Virus record (IMG/VR): IMGVR_UViG_3300015607_000776
Origin: an uncultured virus (IMG/VR IMGVR_UViG_3300015607_000776)
Lineage: Duplodnaviria; Heunggongvirae; Uroviricota; Caudoviricetes
Reading direction: 5' to 3' (one strand)
DNA: 64,000 bases
A model generated the notes under the pieces. The model ran no database searches. It had not been told where the DNA came from and worked only from the letters and a program-made list of their open reading frames with translations. The position numbers were made by a program, and so were the translations under genes. Positions 11,784-54,265 of the stretch are shown piece by piece. How positions within the stretch are numbered: the stretch's first letter is position 1; each line of letters starts with the position of its first letter.

Positions 11784-11861
11784 TGGTTGCGGAGAGGGGG
11801 AATCGAACCACCCATTATTAGTTTATGAGACTAATCAGAACACCAGTCCTAGCCTCCCGCA
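11784..11861 (-). tRNA. tRNA-Met(CAU), initiator-like 3' end
   Basis: Loop CTCATAA; ends CGCAACCA. Confidence 0.8.
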
Positions 11862-12403
11862 ATAACTTTTTTATTCCAAGGAATTCTGCCTTTCAACCAA
11901 GGTTTGGGTTTTCCTTTAGTAGCTTCACTTACCGCCAATCCAATTCTTTCCTTAGTCTCAGATGAATGTGTCTTACCCGTCATACCTATTCCTAATGTAC
12001 CATTTTTATGTCTCTGTATATTAGATTCAGATATTTTACGGCGAGTCTCGTATGTAATAACTTGTTCTTTGCGTTTCAATTTTATTTTCTGTATTGTTTC
12101 TTCTGAATGCTTACGTCCTTTAAAATGGGCCCCGCCTTCTCCACCAGGACCTTTATTATAATTAGATTCCGACAAAATTAATTCATCAGTTACTAATTCT
12201 TTTTCCTTAGCATTCATTTCTGCTTCTGTATCAAATACAAATAAAACTTCCTTTGTGAAATTTTCTTTCCCATATTTTTTAATAGCACGTTTCAAATGCA
12301 CTCCTGATCCATAATAGTTATCGTCAAGATTGTTCGTTTCGTGCTTACCGATATAAAACTTTCCATTTAATTTGTTGATAACTTTATAAATCGTATAATA
12401 CAA
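11849..12403 (-). CDS. SegB-like GIY-YIG homing endonuclease with NUMOD3 repeats
   Basis: TIYKV.N..NGKFYIGKH, YYGSG, KHSEET; stop inside tRNA-Met. Confidence 0.9.
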   Translation of the reverse strand: MYYTIYKVINKLNGKFYIGKHETNNLDDNYYGSGVHLKRAIKKYGKENFTKEVLFVFDTEAEMNAKEKELVTDELILSESNYNKGPGGEGGAHFKGRKHSEETIQKIKLKRKEQVITYETRRKISESNIQRHKNGTLGIGMTGKTHSSETKERIGLAVSEATKGKPKPWLKGRIPWNKKVIAGG

Positions 12404-12651: not shown

Positions 12652-12744
12652 TGGAGGATAGCAGAGGACTCGAACCCCAAACCGTATTTCAGGTCCCATC
12701 CGCTTTCAAGGCGGAGCCGCGCCCATTGCGCAAGTTTACTATCC
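12652..12744 (-). tRNA. tRNA-Ser(UGA), 8/4 fold
   Basis: 8-bp acceptor, 4-bp T-stem, long D-stem and variable arm. Confidence 0.85.
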
Positions 12745-13862: not shown

Positions 13863-13904
13863 TGGCTCCTGCCGCAGGATTCGAACCTGGAGTATTTAGT
13901 TAAC
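13863..13904 (-). pseudogene. 3' half of a tRNA-Asn-like gene (anticodon to CCA)
   Basis: GTTAA-CTAAA-TACT-CCAGGTTCGAATCCTGC-GGCAGGA-G-CCA; no 5' half. Confidence 0.6.
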
Positions 13905-13916
13905 CTGAGTGTTATG

Positions 13917-13999
13917 CTCTGGAGGTAGGGGTCGAACCTACAAGGGCAATGCCCGTTTGATTAACAGTCAAATGCGTTTTCCAGTTCCGCCACACCAGA
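13917..13999 (-). tRNA. tRNA-Asn(GUU) with long variable arm, no CCA
   Basis: Loop CTGTTAA; variable arm GGGC-ATT-GCCC; G73. Confidence 0.8.
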
Positions 14000-14028
14000 G
14001 CATAACACTCAGGAATAATTCAGTGTTT

Positions 14029-16622: not shown

Positions 16623-16626
16623 ATTC

Positions 16627-17118
16627 TTATTTTCGTTTGAGACTTTCTTTAAATTTTTTCATTAAAATTTCTGCGTCGTCTCTTTTAGTCCAATGATTTT
16701 TCTTCATATTCTCTATATGAGAGTCACTAAATTTTCTACCTGTAAGTGATTTTTTCACTTTTTCCACATGCTCTTTAGATTGTAACCTACCTTTCAGTGA
16801 CTTGCTTATTTTCTGTTTAGTTTTTTCATCATGACCTTGATTGAAAAATTTTTCAGACGCATTATGCTTATTGTAAAAGTTTTCATTTAGGGCAGCATTA
16901 ACTGCTTCAAGAATTTTAGTTTCAAGACAACGAATATCGGCATATGTACCATGCGCTATGATTTGTCGTGTAAAATCTTTGGGACGGCTATTATATTGAT
17001 CAAGCATTATTTTTGATGAACAAATATACCCATCTGTCAGATCACCTTTATGCTACCCAATATAAAGTTTATTCGTTGCATGATCTGTCCAACAATACAC
17101 GAATGCTTCTGGTATCAT
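16627..17118 (-). pseudogene. GIY-YIG/NUMOD3 endonuclease with in-frame TAG at codon 22
   Basis: MIPEAFVYCWTDHATNKLYIG*HKGDLTDGYICSS continues in frame into the 126-aa ORF. Confidence 0.8.
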
Positions 17119-17141
17119 ATAGTTTCCTTATGTTGTTAAAT

Positions 17142-17231
17142 TGGTGCCCCGTGAAGGAATCGAACCATTTCGCTACCACCCATCTTTATTATAAGCAAAC
17201 GTTTTACAGACGCCCGACGGGAACACGAGGC
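17142..17231 (-). tRNA. tRNA-Tyr(GUA), D-arm-less atypical fold
   Basis: Acceptor, loop CTGTAAA, T-loop and CCA present; no D hairpin. Confidence 0.7.
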
Positions 17232-17232
17232 A

Positions 17233-17502
17233 TTATCTTATAAACAATTGTAATTCTATTTTATGGAGCCTAAGTTTTTCTCTTTCTTCTAGATCATAAA
17301 CACGATAAAAAAAAGAATCAGCCTGGGGTAAATAACCACTATATTTAAAAACAATGGACCTAAGATTACCAGCAATAGTAATATATTCCGGAGGTACAGT
17401 ATTTTGAGTATCAAGAGATACCATTTTTTTATCCAAATAGATTCTGTGCATATCCTTTTTATACACACAATCTTTGAATGAGAATGAAAAACTAAATGCC
17501 AT
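17233..17502 (-). CDS. Hypothetical protein (paralog family)
   Basis: PEYITIAGNLRSIVFKY. Confidence 0.55.
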   Translation of the reverse strand: MAFSFSFSFKDCVYKKDMHRIYLDKKMVSLDTQNTVPPEYITIAGNLRSIVFKYSGYLPQADSFFYRVYDLEEREKLRLHKIELQLFIR

Positions 17503-17513
17503 AATTTCACCTA

Positions 17514-17670
17514 AGACAATCTTCGGTTATTATCANNNNNNNNNNNNNNNNNNNNNNNNNNNNNNNNNNNNNNNNNNNNNNNNNNNNNNNNNNNNNNNNN
17601 NNNNNNNNNNNNNNNNNNNNNNNNNNNNNNNNNNNNNNNNNNNNNNNNTGATAATAACCGAAGATTGTCT
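17514..17670. repeat. 22-bp perfect inverted repeat flanking a 113-N gap
   Basis: agacaatcttcggttattatca-N113-tgataataaccgaagattgtct. Confidence 0.9.
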
Positions 17671-17764: not shown

Positions 17765-18648
17765 AAAAGGCTGAGATTACACCTCTTTGCATTCGGACTT
17801 TGAGCATTATAGCATCCCTTGCGAGGAGCCTTCTCTCGTTGTCCACTATCTGCCTTTCGGTCAAATAGTATCCGAACAATATCGCAGTTTAAAGTCATGC
17901 ATTAGACTTGACATTGTGTGATATTCTGCACTCTCTATCCCGTCAGTCTTGCGGACTGTTAAGCCTTGCGGGCCACGAAACTTTAAATACAAACAGATTT
18001 CACCTTGCGAGTTACGTCTGACTTGATTACCTTACGGCTCAAGTATTAGATATTTTTCACACACAACCGAGGCAGTCTTTACGTTTTTGACCTAAAAGGT
18101 TGGAATTGAACCAACAACCGTCTGCGTAAAATGCAGATGCTCTACCATTGAGCAACTTCTAACCTACTGCGATGTGCTGCCTCTGTTGCTGAATAATCTT
18201 TTGGATTACCCAATACAACACACCACGTACCTTTGGACTTGCGGTCTACTCAGTCATATTTCACGAGAAATGTCCTATTGTCCATTCCCCATTAATATTG
18301 CACTAAAGCCCTTGGATGCAACTCCTCGGACAATAATACTACCCTTTCTTGTACCAATTGACAAGTTGGTTTCATAGTGAAGTCAGCACCACCTGTTACT
18401 TTCCATCGACTTGCGTTTCCCTTTCGGGCGCTTAAATCAACGTTCTTTCCACTACACTTGCGTTATTGTTAGAACCACCCGTTTTATGAATGATCCCTAC
18501 CTCACGGTAGCAAGCAGGCTTGTATAGACGAACTATTGCTAGTGGTGGTATGTAGGCATTCCACCTTTGGGCACCTCACGATGCTTATTCTAACCCATGC
18601 ACCCGAAGGCACATGAGTAAAGGACACTATACTGCCCTTGTTTAGTAT
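17765..18648 (-). ncRNA. Probable GOLLD large ncRNA (~880 nt)
   Basis: No credible ORF; many GNRA/UUCG hairpins; embedded tRNA; 3' TAATCTCAG; own promoter; inside phage tRNA array; family call from recall. Confidence 0.75.
18091..18162 (-). tRNA. tRNA-like domain (UUU anticodon) embedded in the large RNA
   Basis: Full cloverleaf; loop ATTTTAC; no CCA. Confidence 0.7.
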
Positions 18649-20041: not shown

Positions 20042-20599
20042 TTATATTTTACCTTTAGGATGCCATTCTTTCCAGGACAAACCCTTATTCCACGGAATTT
20101 TTCCTTTAGCACTTTCACTCATTTGTTTTTTGGTTTTAATGGAATGTTTTTTATTTTTAAATCCTCTAGGATTTTTATCACCTAATTTAGCCTTTGAAAT
20201 ACTTTCAGTATATTTTTTCCTAAATTCTTCATCATTTTTAAGTAACTCAGTTTTTCTTTTATTACCTAATTTAGAATACTTTACCATATCTATGCGTGAT
20301 GGATGGTGAGTCAAACCATTTCCATTAATGTATCCAAAACCACCTTTACCACCAGGACAAAGATTATAACTCATTTCATGCAAAGTTACAAGCTCTTTTT
20401 CCTTATTATTCATTTCATGTTCGGTTTGGAACACATGGAGAATTTCTTTCTGGAAATTATCTATACCATGTTTTGCAATTGCACGTTTTAAGATTTTACC
20501 AGACCCCATATAACCATCATTTAGGTCTTTAGTCTGGTGTTTTCCAATATAGAATTTTCCGTTAAGTTTATTGGTAATTTTATAAATTGTATAAAACAT
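20042..20599 (-). CDS. SegB-like GIY-YIG homing endonuclease
   Basis: TIYKITN..NGKFYIGKHQT, YMGSG, NUMOD3. Confidence 0.9.
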   Translation of the reverse strand: MFYTIYKITNKLNGKFYIGKHQTKDLNDGYMGSGKILKRAIAKHGIDNFQKEILHVFQTEHEMNNKEKELVTLHEMSYNLCPGGKGGFGYINGNGLTHHPSRIDMVKYSKLGNKRKTELLKNDEEFRKKYTESISKAKLGDKNPRGFKNKKHSIKTKKQMSESAKGKIPWNKGLSWKEWHPKGKI

Positions 20600-22366: not shown

Positions 22367-23254
22367 ATGACAGAATGGTTATATAATGGGGTAATATTTA
22401 CACCCCCCGATCCAAATCCCTATGAAGGATTTATATATTTAATTGAGAATAATCTAACTAGAAAAAAATATATAGGCAAAAAACATTTTTGGACAAGGAG
22501 AAAGAACAAATCTCACGGAAAAAAAATAACTAAAGAATCTGATTGGAAAGAATACTATTCTTCATCGGAAGAATTAATGGAAGAAGTTATAAAGCAAGGA
22601 AAAGAAAACTTTACTCGGACAATTTTGCACTTATGCATCTATAAAAAACAAATGACCTTTCTGGAACAGAAAGAACAATGGGATAGGAATGTATTACTAT
22701 CCGATGATTATTATAACACAAATATAGGTGGTAAATTTTTTGTTAGAGAAAGAAAAATTTATGAGGCTAAAGAAAAAGAAATAACTAGAAAAAATGATAA
22801 ATGGAGAAAAATTAAAAGCGAAAAAATGAAAGGTGAAAATAATATTGCTAAACGGGAAGATGTTAGAGCAAAAATAAGTGAAAAGAAAAAAGGTAAAAAT
22901 AATCACCAATTTGGAAAATCTATTTCCAAAGATCATAAAAATGCATTACGCAATTCCGTGTGCAAAAAAGTGACTGATGGAACTAAAATTTGGAATAGTC
23001 AAACAGAATACAGAATAGAGCATAGCACCAAAACAAACCGTGGTAAAAACGGGAAAAATCGCATTGAAATAGATAAAAAAATTTACAATTCACTAAAGGA
23101 AGCTTCCAATATATTATCATGTTCATCTTCAAACATTGTAAAAATGCTGAAAAGGGGAGAAGCTAAATATTTAGATTTTGAGGAAAGAATAGTGCCAATG
23201 TCATCATATGAATATAATAAAAGACTAACAAAAGGCAAAATACGAGAGATATAG
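22367..23254 (+). CDS. GIY-YIG endonuclease with NUMOD3-type extension
   Basis: GFIYLI.N..T.KKYIGKK, ESDW..YYSS; late promoter TACTAAATA near 22306. Confidence 0.9.
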   Translation: MTEWLYNGVIFTPPDPNPYEGFIYLIENNLTRKKYIGKKHFWTRRKNKSHGKKITKESDWKEYYSSSEELMEEVIKQGKENFTRTILHLCIYKKQMTFLEQKEQWDRNVLLSDDYYNTNIGGKFFVRERKIYEAKEKEITRKNDKWRKIKSEKMKGENNIAKREDVRAKISEKKKGKNNHQFGKSISKDHKNALRNSVCKKVTDGTKIWNSQTEYRIEHSTKTNRGKNGKNRIEIDKKIYNSLKEASNILSCSSSNIVKMLKRGEAKYLDFEERIVPMSSYEYNKRLTKGKIREI

Positions 23255-54143: not shown

Positions 54144-54182
54144 TGGAGCGGGTAGCCGGAATCGAACCGGTCCTCTACAGCT
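54144..54182 (-). pseudogene. 3' half of disrupted tRNA-Gly
   Basis: AGCTGT-AGAGG-ACCGGTTCGATTCCGGC-TACCCGC-T-CCA. Confidence 0.9.
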
Positions 54183-54189
54183 AAATTTT

Positions 54190-54265
54190 TGGAGCGGACG
54201 GCCGGTAACGCTCCGGTCCTCTCTTGATTGGAAGTCAAGGGCGCATCTGTCTACACCACATCCGC
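54190..54265 (-). tRNA. tRNA-Gly(UCC), divergent replacement copy
   Basis: Loop CTTCCAA; U73; T-loop AGCGTTA; CCA. Confidence 0.85.

Follow-up and report, generated by a model that had tools for sequence, protein, structure and literature searches.

The window, by which the whole 64-kb stretch of phage DNA that was analysed is meant, contains a cluster of tRNA genes, all of them on the minus strand. Within this cluster lies a tRNA-like gene of 90 nt (17231 to 17142, minus strand) with the anticodon GUA and an encoded CCA end, in which the D hairpin is absent. From 5' to 3' its parts are GCCUCGUG, UU, CCCGUC, G, GGCGU, CUGUAAA, ACGUU, UGCU, UAUAAUAAA, GAUGGG, UGGU, AGCG and AA, followed in the 3' part by AUGG, UUCGAUU, CCUU, CACGGGGC, A and CCA. 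The features of the gene and its downstream neighbour are the following, where "members" refers to the family of related genes described below and H1 and H2 are the two helices of the core:

17142..17231, minus strand: noncanonical tRNA-Tyr(GUA), whole gene; 90 nt, CCA encoded
17224..17231, minus strand: 5' strand of the acceptor stem, GCCUCGUG, 8 nt; partner 17146-17153
17222..17223, minus strand: UU connector, in place of positions 8-9; U in 81/95 and 79/95 members
17216..17221, minus strand: 5' strand of H1, CCCGUC (the "D strand"); partner 17179-17184
17198..17214, minus strand: anticodon arm, stem GGCGU/ACGUU, anticodon GUA, loop CUGUAAA at 17203-17209; read directly
17194..17197, minus strand: 5' strand of H2, UGCU, start of the variable arm; partner 17171-17174
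17185..17193, minus strand: A/U-rich linker UAUAAUAAA; conserved AA in 85/95 and 84/95 members
17179..17184, minus strand: 3' strand of H1, GAUGGG, inside the H2 loop; H1 covaries in the family
17175..17178, minus strand: UGGU; its GG is the likely equivalent of G18-G19
17171..17174, minus strand: 3' strand of H2, AGCG; H2 covaries in the family
17154..17168, minus strand: T arm, stem of 4 bp (AUGG/CCUU, including a U.U mismatch) and loop UUCGAUU; read directly
17142..17153, minus strand: 3' strand of the acceptor stem, CACGGGGC, discriminator A and CCA (17144-17142)
16627..17007, minus strand: truncated ORF of a homing endonuclease, just downstream of the tRNA; PHROG 314, profile positions 223-341 of 574 only

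The original prediction had placed a D-arm-less tRNA at this site, with only the ten letters GUUCCCGUCG before the anticodon stem GGCGU/ACGUU, and the minus strand shows this layout. In the spacer, the first G pairs with C79, which gives an acceptor stem of 8 bp and a T stem of 4 bp; the 9 letters left between the acceptor stem and the anticodon stem are unpaired in cis and form no D-arm hairpin. CCCGUC (17221-17216) is complementary to GAUGGG (17184-17179), as proposed, with one G.U pair, and UGCU (17197-17194) and AGCG (17174-17171) close the variable region. The anticodon loop CUGUAAA (17209-17203), the T-loop UUCGAUU, A73 and CCA (17144-17142) are intact in the window, again in line with what had been described; the anticodon arm (5 bp, a 7-nt loop and U33), the T arm with its T-loop and the acceptor stem with its discriminator and CCA are all formed as in a tRNA. 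The 8/4 arrangement of acceptor and T stem, as well as the membership in a widespread family, go beyond that prediction.

The gene had further been taken for the only Tyr tRNA in a set covering 20 amino acids. The first part of this claim stands, since ARAGORN, Rfam and pattern searches find no second Tyr tRNA gene within the 64-kb window. The set itself is smaller as called by ARAGORN, which reports 26 tRNAs for 17 amino acids, Tyr being absent; Ser(UGA) (12656-12744) and Gly(UCC) (54193-54265) are both atypical and seen by Rfam only, one below and one at threshold. The former is itself an 8/4 tRNA-Ser. The heptamer CUGUAAA occurs 10 times in the window, with 11.7 occurrences expected.

Besides ribonucleotide reductase and primase, this large, uncultivated phage encodes NAD-salvage enzymes and many homing endonucleases; DNA of the window occurs in sequencing runs of wastewater and activated sludge. 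An ATPase gene lies next to the tRNA-Tyr gene, and its product has at most 35.5% identity to the best-matching proteins of known phages, these being jumbo phages. The truncated endonuclease ORF lies 135 nt downstream of the tRNA-Tyr gene. Contigs from the RNA libraries of two studies (X16, 17136-17261; X17, 17132-17283) span the whole gene; this coverage weighs little, because such contigs may derive from DNA in the libraries. X15 has no contig on the stretch, parts of which lie outside the cover of the RNA runs; neither fact carries any implication. The X16 contigs diverge from the window at 16625 and 17136 and represent another strain, which has different DNA where the window has the truncated endonuclease ORF and has kept the tRNA with a single changed letter. 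In one contig from a further sample (L003), the tRNA-Glu flank is joined straight to the 3' end of the ATPase gene; this contig, which has no tRNA-Tyr segment, is either a deletion variant or an assembly artefact.

Taken alone, the copy in the window says little about its fold. Its minimum free energy is -26.3 kcal/mol (z = -0.82), and 47 of 200 shuffled sequences fold equally well. ARAGORN in its standard setting makes no call at the gene, and RF00005 has no match at 17142-17231 either at E values up to 1 or at the gathering score. The only Rfam match at the gene is tRNA-Sec, with 23.3 bits (E 0.86) and a gathering score of 47. A relaxed ARAGORN run proposes a tRNA-Ile(aat) at 17142-17223, which has a poor anticodon stem and is inconsistent with the family. 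Searches of IMG/VR with an exact 25-mer, with a pattern for the D region and with two flanking proteins returned identical copies only and are therefore uninformative on covariation; blastn of the window and of one family locus (L035) against the phage collection gave no match, and the nearest records (G001 and G002) are without the tRNA-Tyr region. The structure of the lone window copy is thus no more than chance would give, and it is the covariation across the family that makes the fold real.

Relatives were sought in IMG/VR, first with a pattern that prescribed nothing beyond the anticodon loop, CCA and a longer than usual distance to the T-loop. This first scan yielded at least 121 loci and at least 58 distinct sequences with the exact layout of the window gene, including its 22-nt 5' part. 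Among the records of bacterial and archaeal genomes, 31 of the 82 loci returned have the layout; these are mostly small MAG contigs, plus two isolates. A second viral scan, for which 8-kb flanks were fetched, found it in 96 of the 120 loci returned. Altogether, at least 118 distinct sequences share the identical 22-nt 5' part, a filter that is blind to H1. Cultured phages carry the gene as well, at sites left unannotated: the Pseudomonas phages Lyrsu01-03 and Rembedalsseter and the Rhizobium phage RHph_N3_2.

A family model (R1) assigns 82.5-91.7 bits to three cultured phages, none of which was in its training set. It matches the window gene end to end with 83.3 bits and every helix in register, whereas the other tRNAs of the window reach at most 30.8 bits. 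Across 79 loci searched with their context, R1 gives 67 hits at 70.5-104 bits, and the next best match scores 34.8; given this gap, the family is sharply separate from ordinary tRNAs. Its members are 86-95 nt long and have a variable loop of 17-25 nt. Standard tools pass over them: ARAGORN called none of 95 members Tyr and miscalled one as Gly, and in eight loci with family members the best RF00005 match is 26.3 bits, below the gathering score of 29. The tRNA-Sec model RF01852 gives members 23-30 bits (25.8-29.5 for those other than the window copy), below its 47, and no Rfam 15 family reaches threshold on the members tested, namely the window copy and those in the eight loci. These genes constitute a large, previously unannotated family of tRNA-Tyr in phages.

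Conservation of the anticodon loop, the T-loop and CCA is circular, because the search patterns fixed all three, and the anticodon GUA was likewise fixed by the pattern. One non-Tyr member is a second copy beside the Tyr gene in a Henriciella record; it has the anticodon GCA and discriminator U and is tRNA-Cys-like. When GUA was excluded from the scan, 2 of 118 matches had the fold; their anticodons are UAU and UCU. Hence the fold is not strictly confined to Tyr.

The pairing was evaluated on two alignments. In A1, a structure-blind MAFFT alignment of 59 sequences, the 8 bp of the acceptor stem are 100% paired, H1 99.2% and the anticodon stem 99.7%; none of 500 shuffles reaches the observed pairing, and sliding the 3' partner by 1-3 columns leaves 38-58%. 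H1, which joins positions 11-16 to a hexamer of the variable region, has two-sided changes in five of its six pairs in A1. It is 98.2% paired in the second alignment, in which 95 sequences were fitted to a model without H1; pair 14-56, for instance, appears there as CG (34), UA (29), GU (13), GC (11), AU (6) and UG (1). Counted over the distinct sequences, the two strands of H1 are complementary at all six positions in 110 of 118 and at five in the remaining 8, with 43 different hexamers in use; a hexamer swapped in from another member gives six of six in just 23 of 118. The acceptor stem comprises eight pairs in the family, each 99-100% paired and all covarying, and the anticodon stem is 99% paired.

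H2 is shorter (3-5 bp). The exact Watson-Crick complement of its 3-nt core, which exists in 11 types, is in place in 84 of 95 sequences, as against 389 of 6344 (6.1%) when sequences are paired with the wrong partner; the 11 misses come mostly from one subfamily, whose helix is shifted by a single base. Counted by column, H2 is paired to 67.8% on A1 and to 78.5% on the fitted alignment, values that are lower because the helix is short and its 3' strand shifts by 1-2 bases between subfamilies. The division of the acceptor/T limb can also be read from the sequences. Pair 8-87 is formed in 95 of 95, in six types (GC 49, UG 22, UA 14, AU 5, CG 4, GU 1), whereas the rival fifth pair of the T stem, 71-87, is formed in 11 of 94; the limb is therefore split 8/4, not 7/5. 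The T-stem position that is mismatched in the window copy is unpaired in 8 of 95 members. With its one G.U in H1 and one U.U in the T stem, this copy ranks 64th of 95 by score.

Several positions that the search left unconstrained are conserved in the 59-sequence set. Neither A73 nor G1-C72 varies. At its far end, H1 has an invariant C-G pair. The UGG that comes next varies little or not at all: within UGGU, the second G is the same throughout, and the U and the first G are present in at least 90%. The junction between H1 and the anticodon stem is a single letter, usually a purine.

Every helix covaries across 59-95 sequences, and the D hairpin is replaced by a pseudoknot with the variable region. 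The core qualifies as a pseudoknot because H1 and H2 cross; that such an element takes the place of the D-arm had been predicted from the single copy and is borne out by about 100 relatives, across which both helices covary. Covariation across homologs had also been named as the appropriate check, and its presence in all helices makes a decayed pseudogene very unlikely.

Most loci have the family gene embedded in a tRNA array, with neighbours on the same strand and a few bases away. ARAGORN calls a tRNA-Tyr in only 4 of 96 family loci; since two of these share one contig, they amount to three phage contigs that carry both a canonical and a noncanonical tRNA-Tyr. Where 17 or more other isotypes occur within 8 kb (24 loci), canonical Tyr is missing from 20, and any other isotype from at most 2. 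In the complete genomes of the cultured phages Rembedalsseter and RHph_N3_2 (43-45 kb), the gene is the only tRNA-like gene; in Lyrsu02 it lies 4 nt before the single annotated tRNA-Pro. In both Lyrsu02 and Rembedalsseter, its place is immediately upstream of the small terminase gene, close to where the genome record ends.

One of the bacterial isolates, Tateyamaria omphalii KCTC 12333 (locus L165), seemed at one point to depend on such a gene. RF00005 and ARAGORN gave 41 tRNAs for 19 amino acids in its genome, Tyr alone missing, and two Tyr patterns found the noncanonical gene alone. The idea that this is the sole tRNA-Tyr of a cultured bacterium was dropped: the patterns and the search pipeline had missed a canonical tRNA-Tyr with the loop CUGUAAC, which occurs in genomes of the same genus and of which an identical copy is present in T. 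omphalii KCTC 12333. A group I intron hiding the tRNA-Tyr was likewise discarded, the intron hit of this genome being located in tRNA-Leu(UAA). The noncanonical gene is a lone insertion between ordinary metabolic genes and is absent from 20 sampled genomes of the genus. Among its relatives, R1 finds it in 1 of 141 genomes of the family and blastn in 1 of 21 genomes of the genus, in each case the genome of T. omphalii KCTC 12333 itself. In all five bacterial genomes checked, a canonical tRNA-Tyr coexists with the noncanonical gene, and hence no organism is shown to depend on the latter. Because both forms coexist and the gene has been found in so few of the related genomes, the noncanonical tRNA-Tyr is, in bacteria, an accessory and recently acquired gene.

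Compared with canonical class II tRNA-Tyr (RF00005), the family has in common the GUA anticodon, A73, G1-C72, the type of T-loop, a variable arm, CCA and the position in tRNA arrays. The canonical form has a D hairpin and a 7/5 limb; the family has neither, its limb being 8/4 and its loop of 17-25 nt donating one strand of a D-like helix. The best Rfam match, tRNA-Sec (RF01852), is explained by the 8-bp acceptor stem and the long variable region; tRNA-Sec has the anticodon UCA and a 6-bp D stem with a 4-nt loop, whereas the family has GUA and no such D stem or loop.

Unusual limbs have been described before: the available portion of Mukai et al. 2017 (PMC5389517) reports (8/4) and (9/3) allo-tRNAs as well as 8/4 tRNA-Ser and tRNA-His of bacteria and alpha-proteobacterial phages. 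These share with the family the 12-bp limb split 8/4, a long variable arm, an occurrence in phage tRNA clusters and the fact that standard finders miss them. They are, as far as that portion describes them, cloverleaves with a D-arm, whereas the noncanonical tRNA-Tyr has no D hairpin and rebuilds the stem from the variable loop in a pseudoknot; the 8/4 isotypes named there do not include Tyr. Mitochondrial tRNAs lacking the D-arm, such as mammalian mt-tRNA-Ser(AGY) and nematode tRNAs, likewise have no D hairpin and work as adaptors according to the part of PMC7609411 at hand. The same part depicts them as shrunken, with a short unpaired replacement loop and without the contact between G18-G19 and the T-loop, and as needing adapted partner proteins (PMC7609411). 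Members of the family, which are found in phages and bacteria, are instead longer than a normal tRNA, keep the T-loop and the GG and have a covarying helix for the D stem; the short replacement loop and reduced size of the mitochondrial type are absent from them, and the D/T contact is probably not lost.

Full-text searches outside the subscription journals turned up neither a D-arm-less nor a pseudoknotted phage tRNA-Tyr, nor any account of such a fold for bacteria or their viruses. Among viral RNA candidates, DNAVirus_1423, which sometimes overlaps a tRNA-Tyr call, represents another family (66 nt, five soil sequences), judging from the part of PMC10690425 that was covered. One of the 10,006 unnamed candidates of the same source, of which a portion was checked, might overlap the family described here.

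These results are best explained by a working tRNA-Tyr with a rewired core, belonging to a widespread, horizontally mobile and mainly phage-borne family; we consider this reading probable. The normal 12 bp of the acceptor/T limb are kept and split 8/4. The six letters after the UU connector pair with six letters inside the 17-25 nt variable loop to form H1, which should stack on the anticodon stem and so restore the normal length of the D/anticodon limb: the limb built with H1 would be about as long as a normal D stem, position 26 and the anticodon stem together. In canonical tRNAs, G18-G19 lock the elbow to the T-loop. The UGG following H1 probably replaces them at the elbow, presumably by contacting the T-loop, and H2 closes the long loop in the manner of the stem of a class II variable arm. 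The A/U-rich linker (17185..17193) presumably has a role, too.

The identity marks of bacterial TyrRS are A73, G1-C72, GUA and the variable arm. The sequence carries the full bacterial tRNA-Tyr identity set (GUA, A73, G1-C72 and a long variable arm), and because these marks are retained, the host TyrRS probably charges the noncanonical tRNA. Indirect indications come from the tRNA sets whose Tyr gap it fills and from the RNA-library contigs that span it. The molecule likely functions as a charged tRNA-Tyr; we infer that it is processed, charged and used in decoding.

The alternative that fares best is a tRNA-shaped decoy, which would soak up or inhibit a tRNA-Tyr-directed nuclease or another host factor and would not be used by the ribosome. 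Its core is far from canonical, and the small phages in which the gene is the only tRNA-like gene fit defence better than codon supply; moreover, over-expressed tRNA-Tyr neutralises PtuA-PtuB toxicity, and PMC13096335 discusses phage tRNA-Tyr as "a decoy or supplement". A decoy would have little need of what the family has retained for charging and translation, that is, the 12-bp limb, A73, G1-C72, CCA, the 5-bp anticodon stem with its 7-nt loop and the normal length of the D/anticodon limb. It would also leave unexplained that the genes fill the Tyr gap in near-complete tRNA sets and that the rare member with another anticodon changes its discriminator as a real tRNA does (GCA with U73), and on balance we regard it as unlikely.

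It is highly improbable that the gene encodes a structured RNA which only resembles a tRNA and serves another purpose, whether as target or attP mimic in integration, as a signal for replication or packaging, or as a regulatory RNA. The position upstream of the small terminase gene near the record end in Lyrsu02 and Rembedalsseter would suit it, as would the lone insertion between metabolic genes in one bacterial isolate, absent in 20 genomes of the same genus. Most loci, however, lie in the middle of a tRNA array, on the same strand and with tRNA-like spacing, and an attP fragment needs neither a covarying 5' acceptor strand nor an anticodon arm.

That the window copy is a decayed tRNA-Tyr pseudogene, produced by endonuclease-linked recombination damage and held together by chance complementarity, is scarcely credible: a fold no better than shuffles, the truncated endonuclease ORF 135 nt downstream, the lack of an ARAGORN or Rfam call and the competing poor "tRNA-Ile" fold of relaxed ARAGORN would fit it, but the gene matches R1 end to end (83.3 bits, all helices in register), has its architecture repeated with compensatory changes in at least 118 distinct sequences and persists, with a single altered letter, in a strain that has other DNA next to it.

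Why a working tRNA-Tyr should have acquired this core may be seen from the defence systems that attack tRNA-Tyr. In the available portions of the respective reports, Retron-Eco7 cuts between U47 and C48 of tRNA-Tyr, and the tRNA-Tyr of a T5-like phage escapes by way of its own variable loop (PMC12673091); Septu cuts the variable arm of tRNA-Tyr at positions 48-49, and phage T6 answers it with an amplified unit consisting of tRNA-Tyr and a truncated segB endonuclease gene (PMC13096335). The systems by which phages counter PtuA-PtuB (T5-like SP15, T6; PMC12673091, PMC13096335, PMC11555353) thus share with the family a phage-borne tRNA-Tyr and a contested variable loop, and the gene of a SegB-kind homing endonuclease adjoining the tRNA is common to the phage system and the window. 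As described in the accessible parts of these sources, the tRNAs of SP15 and T6 are cloverleaves, either altered in the variable loop or raised in dosage, whereas in the family the whole core is rewired.

By analogy with these cases, the letters of the variable region would be locked in helices at the very site that PtuA-PtuB-type nucleases cut, so that the phage may keep a supply of tRNA-Tyr once that of the host is destroyed. Counter-defence appears to be the most likely reason for the fold, because the variable letters are tied up in two helices and a truncated endonuclease ORF lies alongside. Resistance of the noncanonical tRNA-Tyr to nucleases is plausible in so far as the variable loop or arm of tRNA-Tyr is where two published defence nucleases cut; these nucleases are from E. 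coli, and the hosts of the family may differ. A more far-reaching proposal, namely that this is a second natural tRNA architecture, fully active in translation, which arose in phages as a nuclease-proof tRNA-Tyr, is spreading to bacterial chromosomes and is being reused for other anticodons, is put forward tentatively and with more doubt than conviction.

The shape of tRNA is among the most conserved features of biology. The family would reveal what the ribosome, EF-Tu, RNase P and TyrRS truly require of the tRNA core. It explains the apparently "missing" tyrosine in many phage tRNA sets, in which standard finders were right for 0 of 95 members, and would add a structural solution to the tRNA arms race between phages and nucleases, beside point changes and gene dosage. 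It may also offer an orthogonal or nuclease-resistant scaffold for genetic-code engineering. With three phages and one marine bacterium that carry the gene in culture, these ideas are directly testable.

The tRNA cluster of the window is exactly where the strain variants diverge, either retaining only 80-90% identity or carrying replaced cassettes. Four homing-endonuclease ORFs, full or truncated, are dispersed across this cluster, which also contains a run of N and a GOLLD RNA located upstream of the tRNA-Tyr gene, at a distance of ~540 nt:

11849-12403, homing-endonuclease ORF (PHROG 314)
16627-17007, homing-endonuclease ORF (PHROG 314)
20042-20599, homing-endonuclease ORF (PHROG 314)
22367-23254, homing-endonuclease ORF (PHROG 314)
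17515-17670, run of N between tRNA-Glu and an 89-aa ORF
17768-18226 (-), GOLLD RNA (Rfam RF02032, 229.8 bits)
18091-18162 (-), tRNA inside the GOLLD RNA

The run of N is bordered on both sides by a perfect 21-nt inverted repeat, and N is also found at the same place in the matching IMG/VR contig. In L003, a related-strain contig from another sample, the left flank of the run continues immediately into the ATPase gene at its 3' end (15578); the segment skipped includes tRNA-Phe, the endonuclease fragment and tRNA-Tyr. Such a junction would reflect either a deletion in this variant or an error of assembly.

The tRNA embedded in the GOLLD RNA differs between strains by a single letter, located at anticodon position 34: the anticodon is UUU (Lys) in the window and L003, versus GUU (Asn) in G001:C204, a contig of a near relative. 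Apart from this letter, the GOLLD stretch is ~99% identical between the strains compared.

Several further tRNA genes of the window are atypical:

12656-12744 (-), tRNA-Ser(UGA), detected by Rfam only as tRNA-Sec (38.5 bits)
13900-14010 (-), tRNA-Asn(GUU) of 84 nt with a flanking helix
19366-19556 (-), two odd tRNA-like genes
54144-54265 (-), tRNA-Gly(UCC) with a repeated 3' part (30.1 bits, aberrant T-loop)

ARAGORN made no call for the tRNA-Ser(UGA) at 12656-12744. Read by eye, it has an acceptor stem of 8 bp, a T stem of 4 bp, U as discriminator and a D-loop that is very short, and is thus of the 8/4 type, which Mukai et al. 2017 (PMC5389517) described among the tRNA-Ser of phages. The tRNA-Asn(GUU) possesses a long variable arm, unusual for Asn, and its flanking sequences form a helix of ~18 bp that extends the acceptor stem. 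The first of the two tRNA-like genes (31.4 bits) has an anticodon loop of 8 nt; at its site, L003 and L021, another related-strain contig, carry a normal tRNA-Arg(UCU). The second is 98 nt long, combines a CAU loop with a variable region of ~27 nt and is called at relaxed settings only. Directly after the tRNA-Gly(UCC), its T arm, here with a normal T-loop, and its 3' acceptor strand occur a second time, an arrangement that resembles a duplication of the 3' half.

The bacterial isolate genome holding locus L165 (record title Tateyamaria omphalii KCTC 12333) contains an interrupted tRNA gene:

L554:1478-1800, tRNA-Leu(UAA) interrupted by a group I intron

The intron scores 48 bits, just below the gathering score of 50, and one genome of the same genus has an intron-less tRNA-Leu(UAA). 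In both genomes searched with RF00005, the prefilter overlooked a canonical tRNA-Tyr (loop CUGUAAC) that is callable by ARAGORN; apparently 'missing' isotypes in such searches need checking by other means.

The rewired fold also occurs with other anticodon loops. A Henriciella record (L193:1382-1472 (-)) holds a GCA member with discriminator U that adjoins a Tyr copy, two viral contigs (L354 and L384) combine the fold with the anticodons UAU and UCU, and a phage contig carries a second Tyr copy with a loop ending in C (L249:2165-2253).
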